Below, one piece after another: positions 3,713 through 27,512 of a stretch of DNA of 64,000 bases. The position numbers and the translations under genes are program-made. How positions within the stretch are numbered: position 1 is the first letter of the stretch; every line of letters starts with the position of its first letter. The notes below the pieces were generated by a model. It ran no database searches, had not been told where the DNA came from, and saw only the letters and a list, made by a program, of their open reading frames with translations. The stretch is from Octopus sinensis (taxonomy: Eukaryota), in NCBI RefSeq assembly GCF_006345805.1, contig NC_042998.1, positions 97,960,001 to 98,024,000 of the forward strand. Direction: 5' to 3'.

Positions 3713-3790
3713 CTGTTACGATTGGCTGGTTGTGCTCGCGTCATGAGTCAATGATGCCTTGTATAAAGGCACAGCTATTAGTACACACAC
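3713..3790 (+). promoter_or_regulatory. Candidate Pol II promoter, copy A (CCAAT, half-CRE, AP-1, TATA)
   Basis: ATTGG 3721-3725, GCGTCA 3738-3743, TGAGTCA 3744-3750, TATAAAG 3762-3768. Aligns colinearly with 5317-5400. Confidence 0.5.
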
Positions 3791-4199
3791 ACACATGCAT
3801 ACACAGATACACACACACACACACACTCACACACACACACACACATTTATATACATATTTTATAGATATAGATATACGTATTTGGGAACACGCGTGTGTA
3901 TTTTTGTTACGTGGGGTATAAACTAGTCCTTGGATAAGATATCCGCTGCAGGTGCTTAGTTGTGTGATTGGGTGGCCATCTTACTCATCATGACAATCTT
4001 TTAGAAATAGGTACCAATCCTTTTTTTTTTTAATGCCTCATTATTCTCTCAAAGGGAAGATCTGCCTCATCTGCTTATCTCAGAGAATTAATCCATTACG
4101 GGAATCTTTAATTTATGTCTTTGAAAAACTGCAGAAGCTTTATGAGTCAGTGCAGTCTATGGTAACATTCATCCAATATATCTGTCTAATATAAATAAT

Positions 4200-4480
4200 G
4201 ACATTTGGCCTAGAGGCTAAGATCTTGAGCGATTGTAAAATCATAGGTTCGATTCCCGGACTAGGTTGTGTATTTTATTCGAAAGCAAAGCGTTTCATTT
4301 CTCATGTTACTTTAGCTCATTCAGCTGAAATTACTATCAGTGGCAGCTAAAGGGTTAACTCTGCGATAAACTAACACCCCGTTCAGGAAAACAGAAGTTT
4401 TACACTTTCAATTGTGTATACGACTAAAATCGGCATAAGCTCCGGTTTAATGAGTCTTTTGGTTTGAGACGAACTTTAAC
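4200..4480 (+). mobile_element. Degenerate tRNA-headed SINE (family C-like)
   Basis: A-box-like tggcctagagg and B-box ggttcgattccc, followed by a body resembling 5848-6135. Confidence 0.5.
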
Positions 4481-4821
4481 TAATGCAGTTTGTATGAACA
4501 GAGTTGTGTCTGACATAACTATTCCATTTCCTGGATGCAAGGATTTCAGTGAGCCAGGATATACCTATTGTTAATCAAGCTTACACCTAACGCAAATATT
4601 CTAAAGCGTGCAACTATTTTCTGATGATGTAGTGTCTGTGTTTCTAAACTATATTCTATTTATGTATTTATCCTTCTATCCATTATCTCATCAATCAAAT
4701 AATCGACCAGAGCATCATCTATTTGTACATTTACAAGTATCAATCAACCTTTCCAGTCTTTTTCATAATAGGATATTAACGAATAAGATAGAAGGGGTAG
4801 GGAAAATTAAAGCAAAAAAGG

Positions 4822-4862
<41 letters not shown>

Positions 4863-4997
4863 AAACGAGGAAACTAACAAAGGAATTGAGAAAAGGAAGT
4901 AAAGAAGAAAAAGAAAGCGTGATGAATAGGTAATTCAAATCCGTTGGTACTGTAAATCAGTTAAGAGAAGGAAAACTGCGAATATGAAAGCAGCAAT

Positions 4998-5077
<80 letters not shown>

Positions 5078-5316
5078 TAGATAGATACATAGATAGATAG
5101 ATACATAGATAGATAGATAGATAAAAATAATAAAAGAAAGAAACGTAATACAAAAAACACATATACGTGCACACACATTTACATACGAAGAGTTATCAAG
5201 CAAACTATCAATTCTACGCTTGGTGTTTACGGGGAAAATAAATTGTTTTTCAAAGATAATCTCACTAACAAACAGCGCAAACCCAGCGAGTAAGTTCATT
5301 TTGCAATAGCTTCTAG

Positions 5317-5404
5317 CTGTTACGATTGGTTGATCGTTCTGACGTCATCAGTCATTGATGCAGACAACACTTGTATAAATGCACTACCATTAGCACGCAC
5401 TACA
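5317..5404 (+). promoter_or_regulatory. Candidate Pol II promoter, copy B (CCAAT, perfect CRE, TATA, Inr)
   Basis: ATTGG 5325-5329, TGACGTCA 5340-5347, TATAAAT 5374-5380, and an Inr-like cAtt at A5404, 30 nt after the TATA start. Confidence 0.65.
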
Positions 5405-5425
5405 TTACAGAATATAATTGTCGAC
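5404..5425 (+). other. Candidate non-coding exon 1 of the 44035 prepropeptide gene
   Basis: Followed by consensus donor GTAAGT at 5426-5431. Splicing to the AG at 44033-44034 gives gtcGACATGG, a strong Kozak context with no upstream ATG. Confidence 0.5.
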
Positions 5426-5475
5426 GTAAGTACCGTATATTATTTTCGATATAGTTTTAAGTTATTATGTATGTC

Positions 5476-5536
<61 letters not shown>

Positions 5537-5643
5537 CGCGCTTTCTCTCTTTCTTGTTCTTTTTATATCGCAACACCGTTTTTAATGTTACAAAGGTAAA
5601 TTTCTTACATAAACCACTGTGAAGTATTTTAAAGTAATAATAT

Positions 5644-5699
<56 letters not shown>

Positions 5700-5847
5700 T
5701 GCGTGCGTATGTGTACGTATGTATGGATATATTAATGTATGTATGCATGTGCATGTGCTTGCCTATGCGTGAGTATGCGCGTTTATATGTATGTACGTGT
5801 GTGAGAGAGAGAGCGTGAATGTGCGCGCGCGTTCAAGTAGGCGTAGA

Positions 5848-6135
5848 GAAGGTGCATAGCGTAGCCGTTAGAGAGTTTGGATTGCGTTGATAAGGATGTG
5901 GGTTCGATTTCAGGGCCAGGCATCAGTTTGTGTCCTTAAGCAAATTACTTTTATTTAGCATGACTCCAATCAATTCAAAGGTAAACGAGAACTAGCTCTG
6001 TGCAGGTGCAACCTTCTCATCCTCAAGTTGTCACATCTTTGATATTCCTCTGGGCCCAGCACCAAAGACTTTAGAAGGTGTCATTATATGCTCGCGATTA
6101 CACAGGCACCTAAAACAATTAGCGAAAGTATCGCA
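5848..6135 (+). mobile_element. tRNA-headed SINE family C
   Basis: tagcgtagccg A-box, gggttcgattt B-box, gtgtccttaagcaa body, and 3' ggcacctaaaacaattagcgaaag shared with 55830-56100. Confidence 0.65.
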
Positions 6136-6236
6136 TATGCTATCAAGTCACTGGCTTTTTACGTGGGTTTATTTACACACACACACACATCACACACACA
6201 CATACACACAAACACATCACACACACACACACACAC

Positions 6237-6313
<77 letters not shown>

Positions 6314-6369
6314 TGCATGCCCGTTTGTATTCCAAGAAAACATTTTTTATTAATTCTATCTATTGCAAT

Positions 6370-6600
6370 GAAGCGAGCTGGCAGAACCGTTAGCACTCCG
6401 GACAAAATGCTCAGCGCTATTTCGTCCGTCCTTCTGCCCTTGCGTTCTTAGTTCGAATTCCGCTGTGGTCGATTTTGCATCTCATCCTTTCGGGGCCGAT
6501 GAAATGCGTACCAGCTGAGCAGTGGGGTTGATGTAATCGACAAGCCCCCTTCTCCCAAAATATCAGGCCTTGGACCTATAGTGGAAAGAAATTATTGTTA
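6370..6600 (+). mobile_element. SINE family A
   Basis: gcgagctggcagaaccgttagcac...catcctttcggggccgat...aggccttggacctatagtggaaaga. Confidence 0.85.
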
Positions 6601-7134
6601 TTCCTGGCAACAACAACAGAAATATCATCCATGCACATCAACACAAACAACACACTAATACTTAACATACAAACGCAGGTGTGCACACCCTCACAATTTC
6701 TCTCTCTCTCTCTTTCTCCTTTTTTTAAAATAACATACACACACGCACACATAGATACATACATACATACATACATACATACATACATACTACATACATA
6801 CATACATACATACATACATACATACCGAAGTGTGTGTGTGTGTGTAAATCAATCAATAATAAGCAGAAACCAGGTGTGGTATTCGATACTTTATAGGACG
6901 TACGCGTTTCAAATGCCGAAATAATTCTATTATGTAAACATTGTGGCATTTGAAACGGGGTATGTTCTACAAAGCACTGAATACCACGCACGTTTGCTAC
7001 TTATTATTACTATTTCTATAATTTAGCTCGTATTCCGCACATTCGCCTGCCTCAAGATTGATGTCCAGTGTAGTCCTAAAATGGTTACTGGAATGGAGAG
7101 TGGAAACCACTACTGAACCCGATTATCTTTGGCT

Positions 7135-7255
7135 AGATAGATAGATAGATTTGTGGATATATATATATGTGTGTACATATATATATATATATGTCTATAT
7201 ATTCATATACATACATACATACATACATACATACATACATACATACATACATACA

Positions 7256-7291
<36 letters not shown>

Positions 7292-7379
7292 TATATGTGT
7301 GTGTGTGTGTATACATAAATAAATACATATTTACACACACATGTAATATATAACATGCATACATACTTTATAAAATGTA

Positions 7380-7450
<71 letters not shown>

Positions 7451-7456
7451 TGCATA

Positions 7457-7496
<40 letters not shown>

Positions 7497-7501
7497 TAAT
7501 A

Positions 7502-7537
<36 letters not shown>

Positions 7538-7612
7538 CATACATACATACATACATACATACATACATACATGCATACATACATATATATACATACATAC
7601 ATACATGCATGC

Positions 7613-7660
<48 letters not shown>

Positions 7661-7997
7661 CGTAGTATATCATATATGCGATACATATGAAGCTATAACA
7701 ATTTTATATGCAAATAAAAATATATAAATATAAATGTATTTATTATCTATACGTATATATGCATATATCAATTTACTTACCCATCTATCTATATATATGT
7801 ATATATATATATATATATATATGTATGCATGCATATTCATATATATATATATGTGTGTATATAGATGAGGACTGCGGCATCAAAGTCCCTCATCGACCAA
7901 ATGCTACCTATGAAAGGAGGTCTCAACTATTGTTGCAGCTCAGTCAACGGTGGTGCCCTAGCATGACCGCGGCTTTGAAGCTGAAGTATTTTTAAAG

Positions 7998-8039
<42 letters not shown>

Positions 8040-8170
8040 CATACATACATACATACATACATACATACATACATACATACATACATACATACAGATACAC
8101 ACATAACATATGTATGTATATATGTGTATATATGTATGTATATATGTATGTATATGCATATATATATGAG
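7135..8170. repeat. Compound microsatellite field: (TA)n, (TACA)n, (TG)n
   Basis: Directly visible; accounts for many YIYI/MYVC/HTHT ORFs. Confidence 0.95.
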
Positions 8171-8599
8171 AGATTTTGTATATACTTATACACACTTCTT
8201 TTATTGGTTTGAAGCACTTCATTGCATTTACGTTGGTATAGTGATTTCAAGTGTTTAGTAGGTCTCTATCTCCGTCTGGCACTTATTTTATCGAATCCTG
8301 TTTGCCGAATCTCTTGATTACAAACGTTAAGGAACACAATATAGGCAGACACATAACATACAAGCAAAAAAACATGCTCATATATATACATAGATTGACA
8401 TATAATCAGGTATATGCAACGTGGCTTGAAGTGGACTGGTAATGAAAGAATTGTAACCGCTCTTAAGCTTATGCCATATTGGTATCGTCATCTTACTGCT
8501 TGTATTTCATATGTATGTGTGTGTTTATGGCGGTTTGTGTGAACAGTAGTAAGGAGGGCTGAGGACAAGTGATCTTTACAGAATCAACATGGTTCCTGA

Positions 8600-9745
8600 T
8601 CTCTTGTACCGAATCATCTCAGGATCCATTCTTCCAGCCTCTTTCACATCGATTCATCTTGGTAATGTATACATGGGAAGATGTGTCATTTCTCATATTT
8701 ATCCCTAGGTTGCGCACTGGCTATAACTCTGAGATTCCAGTCCCTCTAGATTATCTTGGTCATGGAGTGTTTGTTGGCTGACGTCTTGGGACTCTCAAGC
8801 GTTAAATTGCGTTATTTTTCTTCCGACCGCATGTTGATTGTAATAGGGTTTTGATGTACGTTTGGGGCATCACCAAGTTTCGCAATAGATTGAGATACTT
8901 TTGTATCATCAACATAGCTAGTGAGAGTGCATGTTTGTCGAATCGAGGGCGTGTCCAATAGAGGTACCATAAATAGCAATGGCACCAGAACACAACAGTG
9001 TAAGACTACACTCAAAATCGGTGTTTCCCTTGAGAGAGCACTATTGGCTGCTACTATCAGATTTCTGCCTCTTAAAAAGTCATTTCGTCAACTATGCCGA
9101 CATCACGTAGTTTGCGATACATCATCCTATGATTGACTTTATCGAAGGTTTCCACAGAGTTGAGACATCGTACATTCACGTTCGAATGGTTGAGCAGCTG
9201 TTCCAACACGTAGGCATAGTACTGCAGGAGATATATTAGGCGACTGCTGAATGTTAGTCAGCAAGTAATTTTCATCTAGGAAGGTGATTATTTATTTATT
9301 TTGATAATTCTTTCCATGACTTTACTGATATATGAAGTCAGAGAGATAGGTCTGTAATTCTTAGCATCCGCTCTGCTACTATCTTTAAGAAAATGGCATA
9401 TTACTCCTTCCTTTAGCTTTTTCGGGAATTTCCAACTTGCCAAGAATCTTTGAAAAATTATCTGGAGTGACCTACCTAAAGCATATTCATAGGTTTTCTG
9501 CAGGATAGCAGGAAATCCATTGGCACCCGCTGCATATATAAACTCATTTCATCTGTGGCCGATATTACAACTTATATTCTGTCAATGTAATCGATGGTTG
9601 CCACCTACCTATGCAGAGCTTTGGTGGCCAAGAACTCAAGTGGCTTGTTTCCCATCAGACAGGTGAAAACACTTTTGAACTGCTCATTTGATATTTTACC
9701 AATCCTTTTAAGGTAAGTTGTTAGAGAATGTGTTATCTCCTTGGA
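8600..9745 (-). mobile_element. CR1/L2-group LINE reverse transcriptase remnant
   Basis: Minus-strand motifs AKNYRPISLTS (~9335-9365), FDKVNH (~9130-9147) and SYVDDTKV (ORF 8812-9015), with many frameshifts. Confidence 0.8.
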
Positions 9746-10027
9746 ACAATAGCTTTATTTAAATATATGTGTAATGTTGGTATATATATAAATGATATAT
9801 ACATATACATACATATATCCGTATTTCACTCACTCTCACACTTTCTGTCCCCTCCCTCTACCCTCTCTCAATATATTTGTGTATATATACATATGTGTGT
9901 GTGTTTATATAGATATATACAGAAATACAAACATTTTGTCAAACACATATATACATTTCCATATATACATACTATACATATATGTTTGTATTTCTGTATA
10001 TATTCACATAAACATATATATATATAT

Positions 10028-10548
10028 ATTTCTTTACTGCCCACAAGGGGCTAAACATAGAGGGGACAAACAAGATGAAAATTACTTGCTGACTAACATT
10101 CAGCAGTCGCCTAATACATCTCCTGCAGTACTATGCCTACGTGTTGGAACAGCTGCTCAACCATTCGAACGTGAATGTACGATGTCTCAACTCTGTGGAA
10201 ACCTTCGATAAAGTCAATCATAGGATGATGTATCGCAAACTACGTGATGTCGGCATAGTTGACGAAATGACTTTTTAAGAGGCAGAAATCTGATAGTAGC
10301 AGCCAATAGTGCTCTCTCAAGGGAAACACCGATTTTGAGTGTAGTCTTACACTGTCGTGTTCTAGTGCCATTGCTATTTATGGTACCTCTATCGGTCCCA
10401 GTGCGTTACTGGTACTTTATTTATCGACCCCGAAAGGATGAAAGGCAAAGTCGACCTCGGCGGAGTTTGAACTTAGAACGTAACGGCAGACGAAATACGG
10501 CTACGCATTTCGCCCGGCGTGCTAAAGTTTCTGCCAGCTCACCGCCTA
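10028..10548 (-). mobile_element. SINE family A interrupted by an inverted local duplication (10073-10395)
   Basis: SINE tail at 10028-10072 and head/core at 10396-10548 flank a 323-bp inverted copy of 8955-9277. Confidence 0.85.
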
Positions 10549-10619
10549 TATAAACATATATATATATATATGTAAACATATATATATGCATATATATAAT
10601 ATATATATATATATAATAT

Positions 10620-10664
<45 letters not shown>

Positions 10665-10792
10665 AGGCGCATATAATATGGCCCAGTGGTTAGCGTTTTT
10701 CAGATAGCCAGATACCGAAGAGATTGTATTGTGGATTTCCACCTCGGCATCCAAAACTCAGAGTTTTATCTTGGCTATTGAATAATTGTCAC

Positions 10793-10875
<83 letters not shown>

Positions 10876-10934
10876 TATATATGTATATAAACATATGTGT
10901 ATATATATATATAGTAAGAATTTGCAAAAAAAAA

Positions 10935-12165
10935 AAAAGACGAAGATAGGTGTGTAAACAACAAGCTGATGTATTAGATAACGCTCGGGAAGTGAGAAAA
11001 TCTTTTACGTTTCGCGCCTACGCTCTTCGACAGAAAAGAACACAGAAATAAACAGTGAGTGAAAATAGAAAATGGTTTAGTGGCTAGCGATCTATCATGG
11101 CGAATACCAGGCAGAGGGGTCACGCAGGAAAGCTAGGAAGAAAGGGAGATAATAAAGTAGTGGTGGATCCCAAAACGAAGGTGCGCGTGCGTAAGTATGT
11201 GAGAGCGTCTATGTGCGTGTGGGAGGGGGATTGTGACATTGACGTGTGCATGTGTAGATGTGTGGATGATGGTGTAGGTGCTGGGAAGTGGTCAATGCTA
11301 GTGTGTGCTGGGTGGTATGATGTGGTGTGGTGCGGTATGGTGTTGTGTGGTGTGGTGGTGAGTGGTGTGGTGGTGTGGTGGTGTTGACGGGGGTGGCGAG
11401 AGTGGGGAAAGTAAGTGTGGGTCTAAGGGATGGGGTGGGGTGGGATGGGAAGTAGAGGAATGGTGGGGATGGAATGTGTAGGGGGTAACGAGGGAGGCGG
11501 TGACGATGAAGAGGGAGGGTGGAAGGGAGAAGGTGGGTAGGAGTGAAAGAGGAAGTAGGTGCAAGAGCAAGAGAGGAGAGGTGGGTGGGAGGAAGTAGAT
11601 GTGAGCGGAAGAGAGGAGAGAGGGGGTTAGATGAAGAGAGGAGGACAGTTGAGCTCATGTGGCGCAAAAGACAGAAGAGAGATGATTAAACCCCTGCTCA
11701 CGTCGAAGACGGGAGTCCGGATGGCCCCTGTGCAAGGACAATCTGTACACAGACAGGTGTTGTAAAGAGTGACGGGTAGAGCGGAAATGGCGTGAGACCG
11801 GGGTGTCGTTGCCGAGTTGGATGTCTGGGAAGTGTTCCGCGAACTGGTCAGCCAAGCGGCGTCCCTTTCGACCGATGTATAGAGAAGGACAGAGAGAGCA
11901 GGAGATGCAGCAGATGACGTTGCTAGAAGTGCAGGTGAAGGAGTCAGTGATATGATATGGTCGATGATGGGTGCCTGTGAGGAAGGTGGTGTTGGAAAAG
12001 TAAGGGCAAGTGCGGCAGCGTGGGCGGGAGCAGGAGAACGAGCCGGGTTGGGAGTTTGGGTTAGGGAAGAAGCTGTGGACCAAGAGGTCTCGTAGGTCGT
12101 GGGCTCATATATATATATATTAGGGAAGAAGCTGTGGACCAAGAGGTCTCGTAGGTCGTGGGCTC

Positions 12166-12170
<5 letters not shown>
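10935..12170 (-). mobile_element. Penelope-like element 3' part (GIY-YIG endonuclease plus terminal region)
   Basis: ORF 11655-12083 contains CSRPRCRTC...FTCTSSNVICCISCSLCPSLYIGRKGRRLADQFAEH...PVSRHF, a PLE GIY-YIG with its Cys-rich linker. Hammerhead-like gaagagcgtaggcgcgaaacgta lies on the minus strand at ~11006-11030. Confidence 0.85.
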
Positions 12171-12226
<56 letters not shown>

Positions 12227-12882
12227 ATATATACATAACACCCAAGGGACGTTTGTACGTTGAAACAAAACGAAAACCAAAGATGAACATGAACAAATCA
12301 GTTATCCTTGACCTGCTAATATTACTAGCAAAGTCTTTTTTTATACATAAAAGCAAAGTATCAAAATCCACTCTTAGCCTCAGGACAAGTAAGTATCTTA
12401 TTGAAAAAAACATATCTTACAATAAAAGTAAGCAAGATGAATTTTATAAAAAGTGGATGCTCTACCATGAGTGTGCAAATGTGAAGTAATCCTCTATTGT
12501 TACCTCTTGTGGAACTACAAGAGCATACTATAATTGGATTAAAATTCTATTGGCGAGTGAATGTGTAGTAGTGTCTTTTTTTTTTGTTAATATTATTCCC
12601 TCTTCTTTTTCTCGCTTCTCTTTTTTAAGAAAAAAGAAAGTCCTGTTCTCCGTTTATTTTTATACAAGACTTCACAGCCCCCTGGCAGTGCTGTCTCCAA
12701 TCATAACAGGAAAAACAGGAAATAAAAAATATTAATTTTAAAAAATCCGTTATCGCTTAGAACATACACATATACACATGGACATACGAATGCAATGCCA
12801 CGCACACATGGCGTCTCTCGCTATCACAATAAAATCCATACACATATATACATAAATATATACCTATAGTATATACATATAT

Positions 12883-12915
<33 letters not shown>

Positions 12916-12935
12916 CTTATACATACATACATACA

Positions 12936-12966
<31 letters not shown>

Positions 12967-12992
12967 CTGTCTGACAGCCGTCAGACTTTGCC

Positions 12993-13085
12993 CCAAAGGT
13001 TTTTGTATCGACAAAAGTCAAAGCCTTGGACAGCTCTGAGTCTGTCGAGCTGTCCACAAGGCTTTGGTGGATACAAAACCTTTGG
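12993..13085. repeat. Imperfect palindrome (MITE-like hairpin)
   Basis: ccaaaggtttttgtatc...caaagccttggacagctc pairs with gagctgtccacaaggctttg...gatacaaaacctttgg around a 10-nt loop. Confidence 0.7.
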
Positions 13086-13621
13086 TAACTGTATGACCAG
13101 AATTTTATTTTTTTGCACACACACACGCACACACTAGGGATTCTCTCACGAGATTTCTGGTTTTCAAACGTATTATTCAATAAAAACTATTTACAATTCG
13201 AAAGCTGTCTCAATGTGCTCGGATTGCTCAATAAGCAGCCTTTACGGCATTTAAAGATTGTTTATAAAGATTTTCTCAGAAACTAACACAATTTAAAATA
13301 TGCAAACTTCCTTCGAAAATTAGCGACCAACAGAAAATAACTTCCTGTATCGAAAATAGACTAAATCTATAGCATAAATAAATAGTATGCAAATTAGATT
13401 CGACTAATGGATTGATTTCCACGAATACGATAATCAAAAATTCTTTTATTAGGAAAGTTATGACAAATAAAGGTTTGGCTTTGCTGGAGAATAGCACTCC
13501 TTTAACACAGATGATCATGCACCAATATGATTTGGAAAAAACAAATGTTATGTTTAGTGAAATAATTAAAAGAAAGGGGAACTTTAACAAATTCAGTAGT
13601 TTGATAATATGCAGCTTTGCG

Positions 13622-14026
13622 AGGTGGCGAGCTGGCAGAAACGTTAGCACGCCGGGTGAAATGCTTAGCAGTATTTCGTCTGCCATTACGTTCTGAGTTC
13701 AAATCCCGCCGAGGTCGACTTAGCCTTTCATCCTTTCAGGGTCGATAAATTAAGTACCAGTTACGTACTGGGGTTGATATAATCGACTTAATCCGTTTGT
13801 CTGTCCTTGTTTGTCCTCTTTGTGTTTAGCCCCTTGTGGGTAATAAAGAAATAGGTATTTCGTCTGTCTTTACGTTCTGAGTTCAAATTCCGCCGAGTCG
13901 ACTTTACCTTTCATCCTTTCGGAGTCGATAAATTAAGTATCAGTTGCGTATTGGGGGGGGGGGGTCCGATCTAATCGACTTTCCCACTCCCCCAAAATGT
14001 CGGGCCTTGTGCCTAGAGTAGAAAAG
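13622..14026 (+). mobile_element. Dimeric SINE family A with 16-bp TSD
   Basis: Two cores in tandem, flanked by aatatgcagctttgcg at 13606-13621 and 14027-14042. Confidence 0.9.
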
Positions 14027-15356
14027 AATATGCAGCTTTGCGTAATCGCGAGTATTTGCACGTCAATATACATTCATCTGGTAATTTTGGGGATTCAGAA
14101 ACGATCAGAATGTATGGAAGTTTAGTTGCTGAAGAATTATAGAGCTTTTTGAAACAAAACTTTCTAAATTCAATTTGATTCGGAAAGAAATATATAGCTG
14201 CGATCCTAACTGATGAAGTAAATATTTCTTCTTTATATACCTTGTGCGCTAAATATTTTCTCCACTTTTCAAAACAATCCACACAATACCAAATTTTGTT
14301 CTAAATATCATCATTCATTCACCAGAAACCAGCTGTGTGAACAGCAATAATCGCTAGATTAATAAGGGCTAATCAACTGGAAAAGCAATTAATTTCACTC
14401 TGATTATTATTCACTGTACTTTCTAGTATTATCATGAACGTAGTGGGCTGTCAAATGATTTTTTTTAAAGTTTTTTTCATCAAAGGTAAACTAGAATTAA
14501 GACAACAAAGACTTCAGCAAAACTGAATCCGTAAAATCGACTGCCGATAGCAAGGAATGCCAGAACAGAGACAACAAACACGTTAAGAAAAGAGAATCCG
14601 TGCAACAAACTGTCAACAGTAAGAAGCACTACAACTTGAAAAGATAGAATACGTGGAGCAAACCGCTCATAGGAAGAGACACCAGAAGAGAAATATGACA
14701 GGCTTTAAAAAAAAAAAGACTGAGTCGAACTGTTGTCAGCAATAATCTGAGCCGCAATGGCTACACTGCTATCAACAACATAGGGTATACTCACCATCCA
14801 TCTCAAAACAATGGTTAACTGAGCATTTGTCAATGATCCAACTGATGGATATGAACTTAACACATTGTCACTTTTTATTCCGTATCAAAACTATGTACCA
14901 AGTGTAGAATAAAAACGAAACAGCTGAAATGTGTTTCTTATATGTCTACGTCTAGCTGAGAATGTTCTAATACTTCAGCATTTTTAAGAGTACTGCTTAC
15001 AGGCACTACTTCAGAGTGTAAGCATTTTCTTAAAAACATTCACATCTGTAAATGTGATATCATTTTAAATCAGTTGGAACTAATAACAATCGTTAGAGAG
15101 GCTTCAAATATCCATTGAAAGTCATAATTACCCCTTAGAACTCTTTCCTTGCTTTTTCTTTCTCATGAAGAGCACCAATATCTGCAATCATAATTGGTTG
15201 ACGATTTAATTCTGTGAGATCATAGCCCTGGCAACGAGGGGTACTTTGTCTTTTAGTTATTAGCACAGCTATTCGGTTTACAACAGACGCGATTTTCGAA
15301 TACCGCAGGTGATAACATGTATTTGCCCCTTCTCTATGTACATATATATATATATA

Positions 15357-15608
15357 TATATTGTAAAAAGGGTCGTGGGTAAGGCCAGAACAATGTGAAG
15401 TAAATGCAAGGCAAATCAGAAGAAATATATATGAATTAATGTAGACTTACCTTGCATTCAATATCTCGGAGTTATGAGGATGGGGTTATACCGCCGAAAT
15501 ATTGAATGCAAGGTAAGTCTACATTAATTCATACATTTGCTTTCTTGTGATTTGCTCGCATTTACTTCGCATTGGTTTGGCCTTACCCACGATCCTTTAT
15601 ACAATATA
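15357..15608. repeat. ~250-bp inverted repeat (arms ~113 bp) with a hammerhead-like centre
   Basis: 15357-15469 is the reverse complement of 15494-15608 with few mismatches. The centre reads tgaggat-ggggt-tat-accgcc-gaaa-tatt. Confidence 0.85.
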
Positions 15609-15677
15609 TTCTGTACAATGCTTCACAGTAACTATTCCATTATGTATATATACACACACGTATATATACACACATGC

Positions 15678-15717
<40 letters not shown>

Positions 15718-15759
15718 CACACACACACACATACATACATACATATATATATGTATGTA

Positions 15760-16295
15760 TGTATCGCAGCCTCTGTGACGTGGTAGCACCATTGATCTTA
15801 AGCGCAGGCAACACATCCCACAAAATATTCAGTGTCATTCCCGGCATATCTGGTTTTATATCAGAGTGGCCTTCTCCTAGAGACATGCTTTAATAAAAGC
15901 TAAGATATGCTTCACTCCCAGTGGTCTTCTACCACGTCGGACACCAACCTGGTATTTATGAGGGCTTGTGCAATGATAGATAGTCATTTAGCGTAAACTA
16001 GGTTTGTCCGTCCTTTTGATAGGTCTTGTAATTAGTCCTGTTGGGTTTCTAGCAACCCTCTTTACCAAGCAAGCCTAGTGGGGGAGCCGGTTTAGCCGCC
16101 AACGAACCGACCATGTAACAGGGTGTACTGGTGCGATATTACAAGTGACCTGATAAAATGGGCCTACTACCCATATTTGCACAGGATGTCTTGTCCTGGC
16201 TTGTCTCTGGAACCCGTGCGAAGCCTACAACTGGTGTAACAACCTCATCCATGGGTAATGGTCAGTGATGGTTTTCCCCAGTCACGAGTAGGTAG
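15760..16295. repeat. Unclassified GC-richer interspersed repeat between microsatellites
   Basis: Abrupt composition change bounded by microsatellites; no protein motif recognised. Confidence 0.3.
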
Positions 16296-16351
16296 CCATT
16301 ATATATATATATATATAAATATATATATACGCACACATACACACACACACA

Positions 16352-16419
<68 letters not shown>

Positions 16420-16595
16420 GCGTTCAACTCCATTTATTTACTTATACTATACAAATTACTGCACATTAACCCAGAGTTTCTACCTTTGAATAGGTCGCTA
16501 CATCCTTGTTACTTGCGTGAATTTTGCTACCCTGGTAACTGTTCATTGAATTTTCCATGTTAATGGTAAACAAAGGATAATTCATTCATCCATTT

Positions 16596-16650
<55 letters not shown>

Positions 16651-16985
16651 ATATATGATCTTTTATATTTTACTTGTTTCAGTCATTGCACTGCGGCCAC
16701 TTTTTTAAAGGGTGGTACTTATTCTATCAATTTTTTGGGCCGAACCGCTAAGTTACGGAGACGTAAACACACCAACACCAATTGTCAAGGAGGGAACAAA
16801 CACAGACACAAAGACACACACATATACATATATATATATATATAATATATATATATATATATTATATATATATATATATATACATATATAAACATAATTA
16901 TATACATATATATAATATATATATATATATATACATATATATAATTATATATATATATATATAATATATATATATATAATATATA

Positions 16986-17250
16986 TACATTATTTACAAT
17001 TGACGGATATTTGTCCTCATCTTGTATTTTGTTAACACAATGTTTCGGCTGATATACCCTCCAGCCTTCATAAGGTGTCTTGAGGAAATTTCGAACCTGG
17101 GTTCTCATTCCTAAGGTATTTTCGATGTTGTACCACTACGCCATATGCCCGTGGATGGTGTATTGGTTAAGAGCTCGGGCTACTAACCCCAAGATTCCGA
17201 GTTCGATTACTGGCAGTGACCTGAATAATATAATAATAATAATAATAATA

Positions 17251-17282
<32 letters not shown>

Positions 17283-17467
17283 GCAACATCGAAAATACCT
17301 TAGGAATGAGAACCCAGGTTCGAAATTTCCCCAAGACAGCTGATGAAGACTGGGAGGTATATCAGCCGAAATGTTGTGTTAACAACAAACAAGATGAGGA
17401 CAAATATCCGTCAATTGTAAATAATGTAAATAATGTACATAATTCCTCATTTCTTAAATATAGAACT
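16986..17467. mobile_element. Head-to-head pair of tRNA-headed elements carrying hammerhead ribozyme motifs
   Basis: Plus copy 17151-17467: A-box tggtgtattgg, B-box gagttcgatt, (AAT)n, then the body. Minus copy 17150-16986: gggcatatggcgtagtggt head, internally deleted. 16986-17130 is the reverse complement of 17284-17430. Confidence 0.75.
17333..17380 (+). ncRNA. Minimal type-I hammerhead ribozyme motif (mutated); second copy at 17034-17081 on the minus strand
   Basis: Consensus of the two copies: gacac-CTGATGA-a-ggctg[gagggtatat]cagcc-GAAA-cgtt-gtgtt, with stem I gacac/gtgtt and stem II ggctg/cagcc. Confidence 0.6.
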
Positions 17468-18834
17468 ATATATATATATACGATGGGCTTCTTTCTGTTT
17501 CCGTCTACTAAATCCACCCCCAAGGCTTTGGTCGGCCGGAAGATATAGCAGAAAACACTTGCCCATGGTAACCACGCAGTAGAACTGCATCAACAGAAAT
17601 AACAAGCAAAATTTGAGGCAAATGGAAAAGAAAGAAACAAAATACTACCCAGAGTCAGGGTCATGTGAAGATGTCTTTTTTATTATTGTTGTATACGTTT
17701 TTTTTTCTTTCTCCAGACTGTTAGTTTATTTTTCCATTTTTTTCCTTCCCCTTGATAAATTATATTTCCCGAAACGTTAGATTCTCTTCTATTTCCTCCT
17801 TTGACATATTGGGATTCATTGTAGACTGTTTCATTGCTTTTTGACTTTGACTTTTTTTTTAATCGCTACTCTATTCGGCACGTGCTTTCGCCTGTCTGAT
17901 TCAGCACGATATCTTTTATTTGTTTCCTCTCAGCCTGTATTATTTCGCTTGTATTATTTCTATGGTATTTTTAGCTAATCATATCGTTGCGCCTACATAG
18001 AATTATTCGTCGATATTCTGTGTATTTATTATAACAATTACCATGTGTGTGTGTGTGTGGTTTATGCGTGTATATGTATACCTGTGTGTGTATGAGACCA
18101 GTATGCCTCGTATATATTGTGACAGGTTTTACATTTAGTAATTTTATAATACAGTGTGGACATCAACCAAAACCCGGGACTAGACAGCAACCGGAATATA
18201 GGATTTTCCGAGCCAATGAAGCTTAAGATGAAAAGTGGCAAAAATAATGCCTATATTGTATTGTGTTATGGATACCAATACAACTTACAGAACCATAAGT
18301 CAAATTGATGCGTACTTGACTTCTTTATTACAAAGAGTTAGTTCTAAAAAAGCAAAGAAAAAGTGGCCGAATGATGTCTGTAAAACAATACGGATATATT
18401 ATGAAGAAAAAACAATCAGTTTATGTTCGTTAAGCTTTACTGAGAAACCATTTCAAAAATATATTCATGTTTCTATAAATAAACGTTGAATATTACCTTT
18501 TTTTTCTGTTTTCAATAACCTTCTTATTTCCGGAGACAGCAAATCTCTCTTTTCGTTGTTTCTTAACGCTGTTCACTATCGATGTATCTGGAAAGTTATT
18601 TTCTTCTGTGCGTCGTGCAAGAAACTAAATAACTTGCTGTAGTTAATTCTTTAATATATATGTGTGTGTATGTGCGTGTGTACATATTTATTTATTATTT
18701 CTTGAACATTTCACGGTTTATATGAAAAAGAATTTCGACATAGTTACAAAATGACATTCCAATTTCAGATGGTTTACGATGAAATAGTTGAATCTGATGC
18801 TATCTCGGGAGAGGTTGCATGGAAAAAAATAACG

Positions 18835-19035
18835 GTTTCATATTTTAGCACAAGGCCAGCGGTTTTTGAGGGAAGGGGCGAGTCGATTACATCGACTCCA
18901 CTAAATTAACTAGTAGTTATTTTATAGAAGCCGAAAGGATAGGTAACATCAACCTCAGATGAATTTGAGCTCAGAAGGTAAAGACGGACAAAATGTTGCT
19001 AAGCGTATTAGCGGTTCTGTCAGGTCGCCACCTTA
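18835..19035 (-). mobile_element. SINE family A, diverged
   Basis: gcacaaggccagc...gtcgattacatcgac...ctcagaaggtaaagacggac. Confidence 0.75.
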
Positions 19036-19771
19036 TATGTGAAAACTAATATGAATCAGTTTCGCGCAGATTAATAGAAAGAACTGAGGCATTAAGCTCT
19101 GTGTTGCTTACTACAATTTGAAAAGTTTGCAGCAAAATCATATTTTTAGTTGTATATCAAGAATAAATCTTAATTCACACGACATAAATAGCAAAAGTTC
19201 ACAAACTGTAATATAACTGAATATTTTTTTTTTAAATCAGCGAATAAAATGTTCCAAGCTTCAGTTTAGCAAGACCAACTAGGATAGAGTTTATTATAAA
19301 ACAGTAAAAGAAAATTGTATACAAATAATCTTTTAATAAAGTATGCAGAAGTTAATTGGAACCTGTGGAATACGAGATCTTGATGCATTGTACTTTGTCA
19401 GTGTTAACTTGTTTTGCTTAACCACAACAATCTTTACGATAGACGAATGCATAGTTAATTAAATCATCACTGGTACTAGATCAATCGTAATATAATAGTG
19501 ACAAGTCTAAAATTACCAATACATTTAGTTCGCGGTTCTACTGCTTCTAGAATTCCATCATATTTCTGTGTTCCAAATATTAACAAGAAAGGAATGTCGA
19601 CATACGCGTTACAGTGTCAAACAAAATAAGTTGCAATATCTCGATTAATACCTCACATCTTTACATTAAAACGGTGCCACTAATACACTAAAGTGTATTT
19701 GATAGGCTATACATTCTTGGTTAAAAAGTGAACCTTATGAATAAGAAAAATGTCAATATTCACAAAACGTA

Positions 19772-19960
19772 AGGTGGCGAGTTGGCAGAATTGTTATCAC
19801 GCCTGACAAAAATACATAGCGACATTTCATCCGTCTTTACGTTCTGAATTCAAATACCTTTGGTGTCGACTTTGCTTTTCATCCCTTTCAGGGTCGATAA
19901 AATAAATGCCAGTTGAGCAATGAAGCAATGCTAATTTTGTACCAAGATTTGAAACCAATA
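19772..19960 (+). mobile_element. SINE family A
   Basis: ggtggcgagttggcagaa...tttacgttctgaattcaaa...gggtcgataaaataaatgccag. Confidence 0.8.
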
Positions 19961-20814
19961 TTAGCAAAACGTATTTACCTTTTTTTACTGAATATTGTAG
20001 TATTTCAGAGAGGAACATATTGTTTCAACTTAGCAGTAAATTGATATGGATTCACCGCGTAAATTATAGAAATCGTTTCCTATGGTATTTAAGATAAATC
20101 AGAACCTTTAAAACTTCTATAAAAAGACGAAAAAAGATCTCTTTATTGATTGCACAAAATAATATCTGTATTCACTCGTATTATAAAATGGCTTCCCTGA
20201 CTGTAGAAATAGATATTATAATGTGTTCAATTGAAGAAAGTTATTTGTTGGTCTTTATTATCATTTTGTATCAATCATTCCCAGTTTTATGTTACTGTGT
20301 TAACTTCTTCTTCTTCAAGTCGGTCAATCGTAGAAAGTCATGATAGCTTGATTGATAAATAATTTTATCTTCCACAGTCTAGCATTAAATCTATTGGCAA
20401 CGGAATGCATCTGGTCATAGATATTCCAACTCATTCTCGTTGCATTAGTCACTGTCAGTAGTTTTTTTTAGTTTTTTTCTTGTACATGAAATTTGTCTTC
20501 TCTATTTCTGCATCAACAATTGATTGGTGGTCGGAGAAATCTCAATCGATAGAAAACCATTTTAGTAAAATTGTTTCGTTATTTTTTTTTTGATTTTTAA
20601 AAATTTTATTTGATGAGAGTTTATTCCAACTGCCAGCATACACTGTTAAACATAGTTATTTTATTTTAAGGACCTTGAAACCCAACAAAATGCTTCCTCA
20701 CTAACAGTGAAACTGTACTGCATAAGTTACCACGCATTCTGTCAATCATTTGTTTACAACAAACGATATCACTCCATCCAAGCTATTAACTAATGACCAT
20801 CATTATTGTTTTAC

Positions 20815-21035
20815 AGGGGGAGCTTGCAGAATCGTTAGCACACCATACAAAATACTAAGTGGCATTTCACTAAGCATATTGTCTTTACGTTCTGAGTTCA
20901 AATTCCGCCGAGGCCAATTTTACTTTTCGTCCTTCCTGGATCGATAAAATAAGTACCAGTTGAGCATAGAGGTGAATGTAATTGACTTGACCCCACTCCA
21001 AAATTTCAGGTCTTGTGGCAATAGTAGAAAAGAGT
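20815..21035 (+). mobile_element. SINE family A
   Basis: gagcttgcagaatcgttagcac...gagttcaaattccgccgagg...gataaaataagtaccagttgagc. Confidence 0.8.
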
Positions 21036-21369
21036 TATTTAAAATTCAAATCGCATCAATACAGATTATTTTATTCATTGTATAACTGTCATAGATTTTC
21101 AAATACTCTCACTCCGTAATCTGAATCACAGGTGTTCTGCTTAGAGGTAAATACAATGCCATGACAAGTAATTATACATCATTGTATGGTTAATAGTTAT
21201 CATGCACAAGGGAAATATGACAGAAAGGCATCAGGCCAAATTCCTTGAAGTACTTGCATAAACTTTTTATTAATTCTGGGGTTGGACAATAAAACAATCA
21301 GGAAAATATTCATCCTTTTAAGATCCTCCACCTATGAGCAAACGAAGAGAATCTCCCGGGAATCGTCCT

Positions 21370-21565
21370 TGTTGTAAGAAATAGCAATAGAACCTTCTTC
21401 AAATCACATTCTGTAGTCTTAAAAAAAGAGGCACACCTTAGATAATGTTGTTATGGACACAGTATATCTGGAGAGAAAGAAATGCGATGACCACAGCTGG
21501 AACACCTTTGTTCACAGGTCTGTTCCATCGGAGCTAACTTTAATATGATCAGCAACAACGACAAA
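21370..21565 (+). repeat. Old interspersed repeat family D
   Basis: gaaatagca...caaatcaca...gtcttaaaaaa...gctggaacacctttg...caacaac. Related copies at ~22475-22650 and 37085-37255, and inverted at ~40030-40200. Confidence 0.55.
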
Positions 21566-23369
21566 ACAAGGCGAAAATACTTTTTGCTTATTTTTTATAC
21601 ATATAATAGCTTAGTTAGAGAAGGGCAGTGTCCATAAGATCTCCCAGACGGGGAAAAGAGGAACTTATCTTAACGCTGAAAACTTACTCCGAATGCTTAC
21701 AACAGAGAAGACTGTTCAAGACATCCAAAGGCCAAGTGATAGTATTAAACGGATGACGAATTACATTTACTTCCTCGAGTGTGAGTGTTTGTGAAACTGT
21801 GTTTCTACAGTATTGGTTCTCAGTATTTCTGTCAAAATGTTTCTTTCTTTTCTAGTGCCAAATCAGAGAATAAGACGCCAAATATCGATCAAGCGATGTT
21901 TCACCTTCATTTCTGTCTATCTACTAAGATATCTTCATATATAGAATTGATATGTAAATATGAAAGAATATAGCCACGATAATTAAGAGATCAATTCATA
22001 ACATATCGTTAAGCTCCACGTCACTTATAAATTCATAACATTTTTATTAATCATGTATATAATTATATAAATAAAGATGTTTAATTTCATTGAAACAACT
22101 GTGGAGGGCAATTAAATTCTGAAGTATATGTGAACCGTATTCTTTTCTGATTTTTATTCTATATATCTACTAGTATATATAACGTCTTATTCGTAATAAA
22201 CTGGATTTTTTTCTCACGAATTTAACAAGTATCTTAGTATTTTCAATTCATTTTACTCCAAATATAGAATAAAGTAATTATGTGACACCTTATTCACGTT
22301 TCTACAGCCATCATCTGCAATATTCGTGCTTAATTTTCTTTTTGAATTCAATACGCTGTACAAATCATCTGCACAGATTAAAAAAAAACTAATTCAATAT
22401 GTTAAGGTTTGAAACAATCATATAAAATCACTGTCTAAATCGTTGCTTTTCTCCTCCTTCAGTGATTAACGAAATTCTATGCGATCGCTCGACTGCCAGA
22501 AATTGCAATCAAATCTCCCTCAAATCACACGCTATTGTCTTTATAAAATGTACTGCATATTCTTTGCTATATGAAAAAAAAATGGCAGCGTGATCTTGCC
22601 TGGAATGCTTTTGGTCAACGTTTGATCAATCAGCGCTGTCTTCAGGCTATAATATAGTGAAAAGGAAAATACTAACATACTAAACGATATAAGCATGCGT
22701 CTGCCAACGTCTAGTCACTAAGTCTAGTTGTTTTATTATTGAGCCAAATTACATCAAATCTAATTTCTTCGAATTTAATTCAGACGTTCAGTAGCGATGA
22801 TATAAAGTTATTATGAAATTGATGTTATTTCTAACCGGTCTTTATTTTTTTACCATCCAATCAAAGTGTAATTTTAAATAATCAATCAATAATTTTACTA
22901 ACTTAGCACTGTAGGTTAGATTATTATAAATACTAATGGAATAAAAATATTTCATTTAATAAAATGGAAATATTTAAGAATGTGATTAAATTGCAATATT
23001 TAATATTAAAAACATTGATGAAATAGTTCATAGACTAGCTAAACAAATTCAAACATCAAATGCAAACATCAGGTGGTTGAATTTATGCATAGTAAATGTT
23101 ACAGCCCAACAGTCAATGATTAAATAGATATAAAAGAAGGGACATGGAATTGTTGCGTTTATTTCTACAGCACTTGCCGTCACATTCGTAAATATAACAT
23201 ATTCAGATTGTTAATAAACGAATTATTAAGAAAAGGACGCCTTCATCAGCTGTAGGGACTCGTATAATCAATGCCTTCCGCCAAACTTTATAACGACAAT
23301 CAAATGAGAAATTAATCTTGTCTATGTAGAACACAATTTTAGTTTTCACAATATCTAGTATCCATTTCC

Positions 23370-23800
23370 TTGGCGGCATTACGTCCGTCTTTACGTTCTG
23401 GGTTCAGATGTCATCTCTACCTTTCATCCTTTCGGGGTCGACAAAATATGTACTAATTGAATCCTGGGATCGATCGAAATTGCTGACCTTGTGCCAAAAC
23501 TTGGAGCCAATATTAAAATAAAATTTTTGAAGTTAGTGAAGGGAAGAAATCTTGTAATGTGAAGTGCCTATTTTTTTACAGATTTATTTCTGACACTAAA
23601 GCTGGCAGAATCGTTATCATGTCAAACAAAATGCTCAGCGGCATTTCGTCCGTCTTTACGTTCTAAGTTCAAATTCCGCCGAGGTCGAATTTGTCTTTTA
23701 TTCTTTCGGGGTCGATAGAATAAATACATGTTGAGTACTGGGGTCGATCTAATCGGCTTACACCCCTCCCTGGAAATTGTTGGTCTTGTGCCAAAATTCA
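23370..23800 (+). mobile_element. Two SINE family A copies (23370-23515, 23600-23800)
   Basis: Both carry cgtccgtctttacgttct...tttcggggtcga. Confidence 0.8.
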
Positions 23801-23929
23801 ATTCTGACTCTCAGCCTGTTATAAATTTGAGGGTTGATGAAGTAAGTCCTAGACATCTAATAGAATTTTATTCAGTCGGCTGAACACGATATTTAACTAT
23901 TTAAATACTACAACTGTCTACGACAGTCA

Positions 23930-24528
23930 AGTTCTTTGTTAAAATATCTTGTTTACACTTATGAGACAATACGCCTCTTCTGAGAAGTGTGTGGAATTGA
24001 ACATTATCAAGAATAATCAAGAGAATACCCTCCATCAGGCATTTGCCATATTCTGAACGCCTTACTTCCCTGGGCATGAATACATTGAAACTCCGACATC
24101 TGGCAGCTGACTTGGCGGACACCCATAAAATTATTAACCATCTTACAAACAATAACTCTGAGCACCTTTTCAAACTCTATCTGTCTGACACCCATGGACA
24201 TGTTTACAAAGTCAGAAAACAGCACAACTACCATGACTTTCGGAAACATTTTTTCATGCTAAGAGTTGCTGAAGTATGGAACAAGCTGCCGGCATCAGTT
24301 GTTAGTTGTCGGAGCACTGCATCCTTCAAAACTTCCATGCTTCCTGAGATTCGCCAACACTACACCTGATTTTCTCCCATCCATACCATACACACGCAAG
24401 CACGTATCTGACTCATACACTGTTCGCTTTCCAGACATTTGTACATTACTGCATATTCCTTATACACACTTTTGACAAGTTGTGGTGCACCTGAGCACTG
24501 TATACAATAATTTCATTATTATTATTAT
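23930..24528 (+). mobile_element. CR1-clade LINE 3' end with (ATT)n tail
   Basis: ORF 24043-24369 reads PYSERLTSLGMNTL...THGHVYKV...RKHFFMLRVAEVWNKLPASVV...SFK, the canonical CR1 ORF2 C-terminus. Confidence 0.85.
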
Positions 24529-25083
24529 CAATCGAACTCAAGTTCACATGAAAGCTACTTGATAAAACTGTATGGTGAGACAGCAACCAAAGAGTAGGTT
24601 CCAGTAAATATTGTTTTGTTGTTATAAAACGATGGTTTTATAAAAGTAATTTTGTTTGTCCTCAACGATGAATTAACTTCACCAAGACATTCTATGTAAA
24701 CCAAACGCCTGTGAGCACACAATTACGCACATATATACATATACATGCATCTGTATATAGAAAGAAAATGACATGTCAGTTTGAATCAACTCTGAATATT
24801 AACTTAAGATGACAATTAATCTCTTGTGTGTGCGATCATAAAATAAGGTTTCTTATTCGAATTGAACGCCCACATATAAAACAAAAAGGAATGACATTTA
24901 TTCCAACTTGATATCTCACAACACGTGAGTGTCAGACAGTTAATGTGGTTCAGAAAGAATAGAACACCAAACATTGTGATTGCCAAGGTTTTAAATTCAA
25001 GAATGATTCTTTGTTTCTGAGTCGTGTAAAATAATTCAGTGAGCGGGGAAAAAATTGTTGAAATGATTTTCATGTTATTCTGT

Positions 25084-25250
25084 AGAGGCGTAGGCATGGC
25101 TATGGGGTTAACAGGTTCGCTTCACAACCACGTTGAATCGAGTTCAGTTCTACTATGCAACACCTCGTGTAAGTGTCTGCTATTATAACACTGGGTCTAC
25201 CAATGACTTGAATGATTTTCTTATATGGAAACTGTGTGGTAGCCCATCAT
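25084..25250 (+). mobile_element. SINE family B 5' half; the 3' half resumes at ~26590-26790 after the mariner
   Basis: aggcgtaggcatggct...aaccac...gagttcagttc...aagtgtctgctatta, then later gtaacttagcggttccgcaaaa...gctccagtataaccgca. Confidence 0.6.
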
Positions 25251-25275
25251 ATCTATCTATCTATCTATCTATCTA

Positions 25276-25327
<52 letters not shown>

Positions 25328-25329
<2 letters not shown>

Positions 25330-26586: not shown

Positions 26587-27317
26587 TGCATGTGTGTCTT
26601 TGTATTTGTCAACAGCTGATTGTTTTTTTTTTCTTATATTCTTGTAACTTAGCGGTTCCGCAAAAAAGAGGATCAATTCCAGACTTAAAATAATTACTGA
26701 GAACGATTTGTTCGACTAACCGCACAAGATGTTGCTCCAGTATAACCGCAACCCAATGCCTGAAAGAAACAAAAGACTAAATGAGTTAAAGAATACACAG
26801 AATAACATATGCTATCAGGTTTACGCAGTTACTTCGCATATCTGCTGACTTCAACTGAAGAATTTAACAATATGACTGTGAATAACCGAATTGTGAGACT
26901 TTGTTGATGGGAATTTATTAACTACAACCCTTTGATGCGCGTTTTGAAAACAATGACAAAAAGATTTATGAAGTGTCCTAAAATGTCGATATTACTCATT
27001 TTTGTGCAGAAATTCCATAACTTTGCCGAATATCTCAGTAAAGCCAGGACGATTGCAGTTAACGTTGTGCAATTAAACTCAAAGGTGTGCGCGTGCATGA
27101 GTGCGTGCGAGCAAGTGTGTATACGTTTGCGAGTGTGTATGCGTATGTATGTATGTATGTATGTATGTATGTATGTATGTATGTATGTATGTATGTATGT
27201 ATGAATGTATGTATGCATGTATGTATGTATGTATGTATGTATGTATGTATGTATGTCTCTTCTACTGGGAAGGGAGCCGGTTTCCAATAAAGATATAGTT
27301 AACACAGACAAATTCAC

Positions 27318-27352
<35 letters not shown>

Positions 27353-27401
27353 TGTATGTATTATGCATGTATGTATGTGTAATTATACATACACACACAC
27401 A

Positions 27402-27414
27402 TTACAGACAGACC

Positions 27415-27510
<96 letters not shown>
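27402..27510. repeat. (GATA)n microsatellite
   Basis: Directly visible. Confidence 0.95.

Positions 27511-27512
<2 letters not shown>

Follow-up and report, generated by a model that had tools for sequence, protein, structure and literature searches.

Genes with a BDNF-type layout use alternative promoters with separate untranslated first exons and one coding exon, and in PENK the cAMP and AP-1 inputs converge on one enhancer. The mammalian PENK promoter is a TATA-box promoter that reacts to both cAMP and PKC/AP-1 agonists; NF-Y is reported among its sites (PMC1764486), and its AP-1 element is bound by Fos/Jun (PMC12564054). Proximal CRE/TATA promoters are preferentially induced by activity (depolarization, cAMP) in mammalian neurons (PMC5740062). 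Neuropeptide promoters with CRE and TATA elements are already known, as are alternative first exons. The promoters of cephalopods are poorly mapped.

Proenkephalin is among the bilaterian families found in molluscs, according to the main text of PMC6425005, and comparative peptide surveys list a molluscan proenkephalin (PMC6425005, PMC8557429, PMC3890597). Elsewhere, opioid peptides are said to lack any invertebrate homolog (PMC5818035), and it is a matter of dispute whether the lophotrochozoan "proenkephalin" is homologous to vertebrate opioids (PMC5818035, PMC12919962). A 2026 survey reported that opioid precursors and classical opioid receptors are absent from the O. vulgaris transcriptome (PMC12919962). 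A proenkephalin-like target gene in an octopus bears on this debate about cephalopod opioid-like signaling; "proenkephalin-like" is a family name here and makes no claim of opioid function.

The DNA analyzed, called the window below, is a stretch of 64,000 nt from Octopus sinensis (contig NC_042998.1, positions 97,960,001 to 98,024,000). It is AT-rich animal DNA, rich in microsatellites and SINEs. The window contains 134 stop-to-stop frames of at least 80 codons, mostly microsatellite translations, and a Pfam scan of seven frames returned one reverse transcriptase, one transposase, one weak HTH and four frames with no match. The only non-transposon coding exon found in the window lies at 44035-44700 on the plus strand. 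Far upstream of it are two similar promoter-like cassettes, copy A and copy B. By a slight preference, we read them as a duplicated promoter module of a proenkephalin-like gene, with B the likely main promoter and A a likely second one. No earlier description of this promoter pair was found in the largely non-subscription literature searched. The features are listed in Table 1.

Table 1. Features of the duplicated promoter module and of the gene downstream of it (window coordinates).
Feature	Position	Strand	Basis or details
Copy A, duplicated promoter module	3713..3781	+	motif search, alignment; predicted start ~3792 (TATA+30)
Copy A motifs	inverted CCAAT 3721-3725; half-CRE 3739-3743; perfect AP-1 3744-3750; TATAAA 3762-3767	+	
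Region downstream of A, possible alternative first exon	3782..3960	+	(CA)n 3783-3845; ATG 3795; candidate donor 3952
Old tRNA-like SINE after A	4198..4349	+	B-box at 4246
Copy B, likely main core promoter	5317..5393	+	motif search, alignment; predicted start 5404
Copy B motifs	inverted CCAAT 5325-5329; full CRE 5340-5347; one-mismatch AP-1 5348-5354; TATA 5374-5381	+	
Predicted 22-nt non-coding first exon, no ATG	5404..5425	+	donor 5426, CAI9718020.1; 5' end inferred
First intron, 38,609 nt, GT-AG	5426..44034	+	SINEs, transposon relics, microsatellites inside
Old tRNA-like SINE after B	5849..6010	+	B-box at 5901
Single coding exon, 221-aa proenkephalin-like precursor	44035..44700	+	ORF, homologs, published set

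The 221-aa precursor is identical to an NCBI record, and its gene is labeled "uncharacterized" in databases. It has a hydrophobic N-terminus, with a signal peptide judged by eye, eight cysteines and four dibasic sites. The cysteine spacing, 9-2-13-0-8-2-6, is the same in all four octopod sequences compared. Identity to the Argonauta protein is ~77% overall and is distributed unevenly, with 55/63 identical residues in the Cys domain and 23/23 in residues 184-206 versus 42/70 in the spacer; conservation in a neuropeptide precursor is distributed in this way. The conserved peptide follows a KR at 183-184 and is the one KR-flanked peptide, with Ser at position 1 and Gly at position 2. Residues 184-206 point to the likely active peptide, and the octopod precursor has one such peptide where other molluscs have many Tyr-Gly repeats. 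The YGGF core peptide is absent from the precursor.

The assignment to the proenkephalin family comes from published sets. A molluscan proneuropeptide set (PMC6425005) and a second set, in PMC8557429, both include the O. bimaculoides ortholog, Ocbimv22011834, which by eye is the same sequence as record P0003. In PMC6425005, it stands in a block that begins with vertebrate proenkephalin and prepronociceptin and leads on, by way of Platynereis Pdu-Proenkephalin, to the molluscan precursors, a placement read from the order of the file and not from an explicit label. By eye, the molluscan precursors in that block have matching 8-Cys spacing (PMC6425005). Searches with the precursor itself found no match in Pfam, only octopod relatives in sequence databases and none among shorter proteins, a best E of 0.098 against PDB sequences, and best values of 0.82 and 0.88 in the ESM Atlas, both below lead level. 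A full-length AlphaFold model was unusable (pLDDT 37.7). The Cys domain was modeled as four helices (pLDDT 78.9; 2/5 models confident), and a fold search with this model was uninformative (best Z 5.3). A likeness to the Lymnaea sodium-influx-stimulating peptide, for which PMC4596865 gave no usable data, was dropped on finding the proenkephalin block. The gene identifiers had no match in the readable supplements of PMC9712504 (expression), and no mention of the gene was found in the available text of PMC9815951.

The initial annotation had described two colinear cassettes 1.6 kb apart, and this was confirmed at the positions given for A and B. The alignment of copy A (3713-3781) with copy B (5317-5393) has 57 identical columns, 12 mismatched ones (6 of them transitions) and one 8-nt gap, which amounts to 83% identity over 69 aligned columns in a stretch of ~70 bases. 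The alignment score was 211, and the second-ranked site in the 64-kb window scored 92. When 200 dinucleotide-shuffled versions of A were run against both strands, they scored 91.9 ± 6.5 with a maximum of 116, giving a Gumbel p of 2.9e-10 for the A/B score. The JC distance between the copies is 0.198, and at a published calibration their separation is at least ~28-55 My (PMC13282606), which would predict the presence of both in O. bimaculoides (split 13-33 Mya). A repeat finder run on the whole window was swamped by microsatellites, and masked self-BLAST was used in its place. It returned 209 alignments in 13 groups, and the cassette was one of the ten two-member groups. A profile built from the A+B pair found no third copy in the window (best remaining E 6.6). 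Membership of the cassette in a high-copy transposon, a possibility the initial annotation had raised, was not borne out within the 64-kb window, which has two cassette copies only.

The similarity ends just upstream of the CCAAT box and just downstream of the TATA box. Beyond these limits, shuffled sequences equaled the observed flank score in 530/2000 trials for 100 nt upstream, 282/500 for 150 nt upstream, 334/500 for 60 nt downstream and 91/500 for 200 nt downstream. The region downstream of A likewise showed no significant homology to the exon and donor region of B, as 1825/2000 shuffles equaled its score. When 17 tiles of 120 nt from the A side were compared with the B side, z exceeded 2 only for the cassette, a (CA)n tile and a SINE tile; a 1.6-kb tandem unit was rejected on this basis. 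Within the cassette, mismatches fall in 5/32 motif columns versus 7/37 other columns (Fisher p = 0.76). The earlier statement that CCAAT, CGTCA and TATA are kept between unlike flanks therefore stood in part: the motifs are retained and the flanks are dissimilar, but the similarity spans the whole block with no focus on the named motifs. The identical blocks outside these motifs are the first 8 nt, TGATGC, and ATTAG after the TATA box, and they are possibly unrecognized elements.

Every motif that had been named for the two copies was found, A having a perfect AP-1 site and a half CRE and B a full CRE and an imperfect AP-1 site. The inverted CCAAT box reads ATTGG in both (3721 and 5325). Both boxes match the strict NF-Y consensus, RRCCAATSR, and are two of the eight such sites in the window; a substitution adjoining the box preserves the consensus purine. 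CGTCA occurs at 3739 in A, and B has the full CRE TGACGTCA at 5340, which is the sole full CRE in 64 kb (CRE definition of PMC10336275). The TGAGTCA at 3744 in A is one of nine TGA[CG]TCA sites on the plus strand, and its counterpart in B is TCAGTCA at 5348, with one mismatch. TATAAA begins at 3762 in A and at 5374 in B. In B, TATAAATG at 5374 matches TATAWAWR, ~30 nt upstream of the predicted start, whereas the TATA box of A departs from this consensus at position 7. The start sites of both copies were placed at TATA+30, and B has a CA dinucleotide there (5403-5404). Relative to these predicted starts, the spacing is canonical in each copy, with CCAAT at -71, half-CRE at -53, AP-1 at -48 and TATAAA at -30 in A, and CCAAT at -79, CRE at -64, AP-1 at -56 and TATA at -30 in B. 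In these elements, two bases set the CREs apart and one base the AP-1 sites, and the spacing to the TATA box differs by 8 nt.

This arrangement is rare in the window. Only 2 of the 1,451 TATAWA sites on both strands have a CCAAT box and a CRE/AP-1 site within 80 nt upstream, namely A and B, which are not independent, and many of the 1,451 lie within TA repeats. The spaced motif pattern, which was derived from A and B themselves, occurred twice versus 0.07 expected. Two GTCAT pentamers are present in B at 5338-5360, spaced at a 7-nt period, and the AP-1-like site of B may stem from a micro-duplication of the CRE half-site. A sigma-70 scan of the window gave 6 sites versus 10.0 expected and is irrelevant in an animal.

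Copy B can be linked to the coding exon through splice sites and a public gene model. The ATG at 44035 lies directly 3' of a polypyrimidine-AG acceptor, and an upstream untranslated exon is therefore expected. A GTAAGT donor is present at 5426, which is 52 nt from where the TATA box of B begins; among the 726 TATAWA sites on the plus strand, only 5, B included, are followed by a GTRAGT donor at a distance of 35-120 nt. The public O. vulgaris model CAI9718020.1 (P0004) carries a 50-residue N-terminal extension, of which residues 27-50 are encoded at 5354-5425 and continue directly into the 44035 methionine. Thus, this model joins the 5426 donor to the 44035 acceptor, a junction deduced from the protein sequence, and it does not name the exon with the 5426 donor as the first. 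The first 26 residues of the model are not encoded in the window, and its translation runs through the TATA box of B. Since the other four of the five records (P0001, P0002, P0003, P0005) begin at the 44035 methionine and the extension would bury the signal peptide, the extension is likely an annotation artefact, suggesting that a public gene model has miscast a promoter as coding sequence. The O. vulgaris reference annotation merged Iso-Seq/RNA-seq junctions with ab initio predictions (PMC10700109), and we infer that CAI9718020.1 derives from that pipeline.

Because a public model joins the 5426 donor to the 44035 exon, B is likely a promoter together with a first exon, and we are fairly confident that it is the promoter of the octopus proenkephalin-like gene. 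The proposal in the initial annotation that B is the core promoter of a peptide gene thus gained support from its canonical spacing, the position of its donor and the use of that donor in the public model. An exon 1 from 5404 joined to 44035 would place a G at -3 of the start codon. Another first exon within the 38.6-kb intron is possible. After the stop codon, candidate poly(A) signals are found at 45171, 45574, 45629 and 46453.

All of these signals (45171-46453) precede a broken non-LTR retrotransposon at 46855-48600 (Pfam RVT_1, E 5.8e-15), which lies ~2.1 kb past the stop codon. Several other repeats were observed in the window. A 323-nt inverted repeat (8955-9277 and 10073-10395, 99% identity, 795 nt apart) adjoins a LINE RT-like fragment and could have come from a recent inversion or duplication or from an error of assembly. 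A purine-rich stretch at 11000-12180 contains a minus-strand frame at 11655-12104, which we take to resemble the GIY-YIG endonuclease of Penelope-like elements, and ends in a 59-nt tandem duplication (12061-12179). Inverted arms of 122 nt (17002-17123 and 17291-17412, 92%) surround an (AAT)n tract and are MITE-like. Transposon-like relics were seen by eye at ~25.5-26.5 kb, 28.0-29.3 kb and 31436-32525. The stretch at 52896-54125 is Mariner-like, with identical 34-nt terminal inverted repeats and a broken transposase (Pfam Transposase_1, E 2.8e-20), and the 108-nt inverted repeats at 62111-62218 and 62951-63058 (94%, 733 nt apart) are probably a non-autonomous DNA transposon.

A SINE follows each cassette in the same orientation; measured from the cassette start, its B-box lies at 533 nt for A and at 584 nt for B. 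Such matching offsets have a chance of 2.7e-4 under uniform placement (post hoc). A third clear copy is located at 55828-55985; all three in the window are on the plus strand, with 50-65% pairwise identity, and from their A/B-box motifs they are presumed to be tRNA-SINEs. A tRNA gene search of the window found none, and the 15 Rfam matches at E<=1 in 3000-6500 all scored far under the gathering thresholds and fell on stretches rich in microsatellites. If the SINEs had been duplicated together with the cassette, the event would be old and both cassettes would be under selection. The SINE copies after A and B are 50-64% identical, the value varying with the alignment, versus 83% for the cassettes (Fisher p 3e-6 to 0.007). 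Informative sites numbered 23 for A=B, 28 for A=third and 32 for B=third, and the SINEs after A and B are not detectably sisters. The matching offsets may be a coincidence or an insertion preference near promoters.

For copy A, we lean narrowly towards an active element, either a promoter or an enhancer. None of the 16 core positions (ATTGG, CGTCA, TATAAA) is altered in A, which has a chance of 0.047 under neutral decay (post hoc). Counting against activity, a (CA)n tract directly follows its predicted start, an upstream ATG occurs at 3795, and a consensus donor near the start is missing. The candidate donor at 3952 ranks at the 96.5th percentile of all GT sites when scored with a generic matrix. 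No annotation using this donor was seen, and no GTRAGT occurs 35-120 nt after the TATA box of A. One other explanation is that B is the sole working promoter and A a decaying copy from a short (~70-80 bp) local duplication, with an AP-1 site that is ancestral or accidental. Decay would fit with mismatches that are even across motif and non-motif columns, flanks that do not align, a copy A with no strong donor and SINE copies that are not sisters. However, the similarity ends near the promoter limits, the core positions have survived a JC distance of 0.198, and the SINE positions are colinear; we regard decay of A as a real but minor possibility.

Another possible explanation is that A is a proximal enhancer of B, acting through NF-Y and AP-1 at -1.6 kb and producing little or no spliced mRNA of its own. 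A perfect AP-1 site next to an intact NF-Y site, the missing first-exon donor of good quality and a second TGAGTCA at 4143 are what such an enhancer could look like. An enhancer would not need the TATA box and its surroundings, yet these are preserved, which makes this role for A quite improbable.

The remaining alternatives fare worse. In one of them, a longer transcript includes the region of B as an internal exon (putatively 5352-5425), and the repeat is a duplicated exon. The encoding of extension residues 27-50 of P0004 and an AG that precedes the stretch in A and B alike would allow this. It is very improbable, as that AG lacks a preceding polypyrimidine tract, roughly half of the conserved block is on the 5' side of the acceptor that it would provide, the signal peptide would be buried behind the extension, and four of the five records start at the 44035 methionine. 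A retroelement origin, with A and B as the two LTRs of a degenerate non-autonomous element, or an origin as copies of a dispersed repeat, is equally improbable; in either case one copy may have been co-opted as the promoter. The copies are direct repeats 1.6 kb apart with CCAAT and TATA, and both begin with TGTTAC, the TG at the second base (3714, 5318), an LTR-like start. Repeats make up ~66% of the O. vulgaris genome (PMC13282606). Against this, no TGG primer-binding start lies within 30 nt after A, no polypurine tract precedes B (7/15 purines), no clear target-site duplication was seen by eye, frames of at least 80 codons between the copies appear to be microsatellite-derived, a unit of 70-90 bp with TATA near its end leaves no space for R-U5, and the window has 2 copies versus 3-18 for SINE families; an LTR origin is thus unlikely. 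The relic of a tandem gene duplication, which the initial annotation had offered as an option, gained no support: a tblastn of P0004 against the window was significant only at 44035-44697 and 5348-5440 (next E = 1.7), which gives one coding-exon copy, and no such exon was seen in the interval between the two cassettes.

The preferred reading, a main promoter B and a second promoter A, suggests the following mechanism, in which factor binding and signal responses are modeled on known vertebrate promoters. B would be the main promoter, and its 22-nt untranslated exon would be spliced across 38.6 kb to the coding exon. A would be a second promoter favoring AP-1 (Fos/Jun) input, and B would favor CREB/ATF input. 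NF-Y on the inverted CCAAT box would keep the promoter accessible, and a bZIP dimer at -64 to -42 would relay signals, from cAMP/calcium in B and from MAPK/PKC in A, to TBP/TFIID at -30. A CRE can also be bound by ATF/Jun dimers, and the division of inputs may therefore be incomplete. Since the entire reading frame lies in one downstream exon, transcripts from A and B would give the same precursor. Judging from their motifs, it is plausible that A and B are alternative promoters tuned to different pathways.

The initial annotation had described the difference between the copies as a CRE-to-AP-1 divergence. That direction is unreadable from two copies without an outgroup, and an ancestor with both sites, followed by complementary loss, would explain the copies equally well. 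The fuller scenario, in which the ancestor had a full CRE and a perfect AP-1 site, each copy lost one and selection kept both, is in our judgment unlikely. If complementary loss were true, cAMP/calcium and MAPK/PKC inputs would be split between sister promoters of one gene. This would be subfunctionalization without gene duplication, and the gene would share the dual control of mammalian PENK. The two copies are also a natural sister-promoter pair: changing one to three bases is predicted to switch the signaling input. The module is a compact candidate signal-responsive promoter (70-80 bp) for reporters in octopus neurons.

Compared with PENK, the octopus module shares motif classes and lies in front of a gene from the same precursor block, a likeness at the level of motif classes. 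The two differ in that the full CRE and the perfect AP-1 site of the octopus are in separate duplicated modules. Many neuropeptide genes have CRE/TATA promoters, so this likeness could have arisen by convergence, and taken alone it is weak evidence of homology. In the precursor, the hydrophobic N-terminus and N-terminal Cys domain resemble those of lophotrochozoan proenkephalins. By eye, the 8-Cys spacing is common to the scaphopod, chiton, limpet and bivalve members, and the KR-flanked octopod peptide resembles the last scaphopod repeat (sequences in PMC6425005). Members of the group usually carry several KR-flanked peptides that begin Tyr/Phe-Gly, and the molluscan precursors contain repeated KR-YGRLF-type peptides, whereas the octopod precursor has one recognizable peptide starting with Ser.

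In its palindromic CRE at -64 and TATA box at -30, B is like the promoters of c-fos, Dusp1, Nr4a1, Nr4a2 and Ptgs2 (CREB/CRTC1), and by analogy it would most likely be induced by cAMP and calcium via NF-Y, CREB/ATF and TFIID. It differs from c-fos-type promoters in also having an inverted CCAAT box and a diverged upstream twin. With its single coding exon, long first intron and more than one candidate start for the same protein, the octopus gene also resembles the BDNF-type layout. Its candidate promoters are alignable duplicates, in contrast to that layout, and a first exon is supported for B only.
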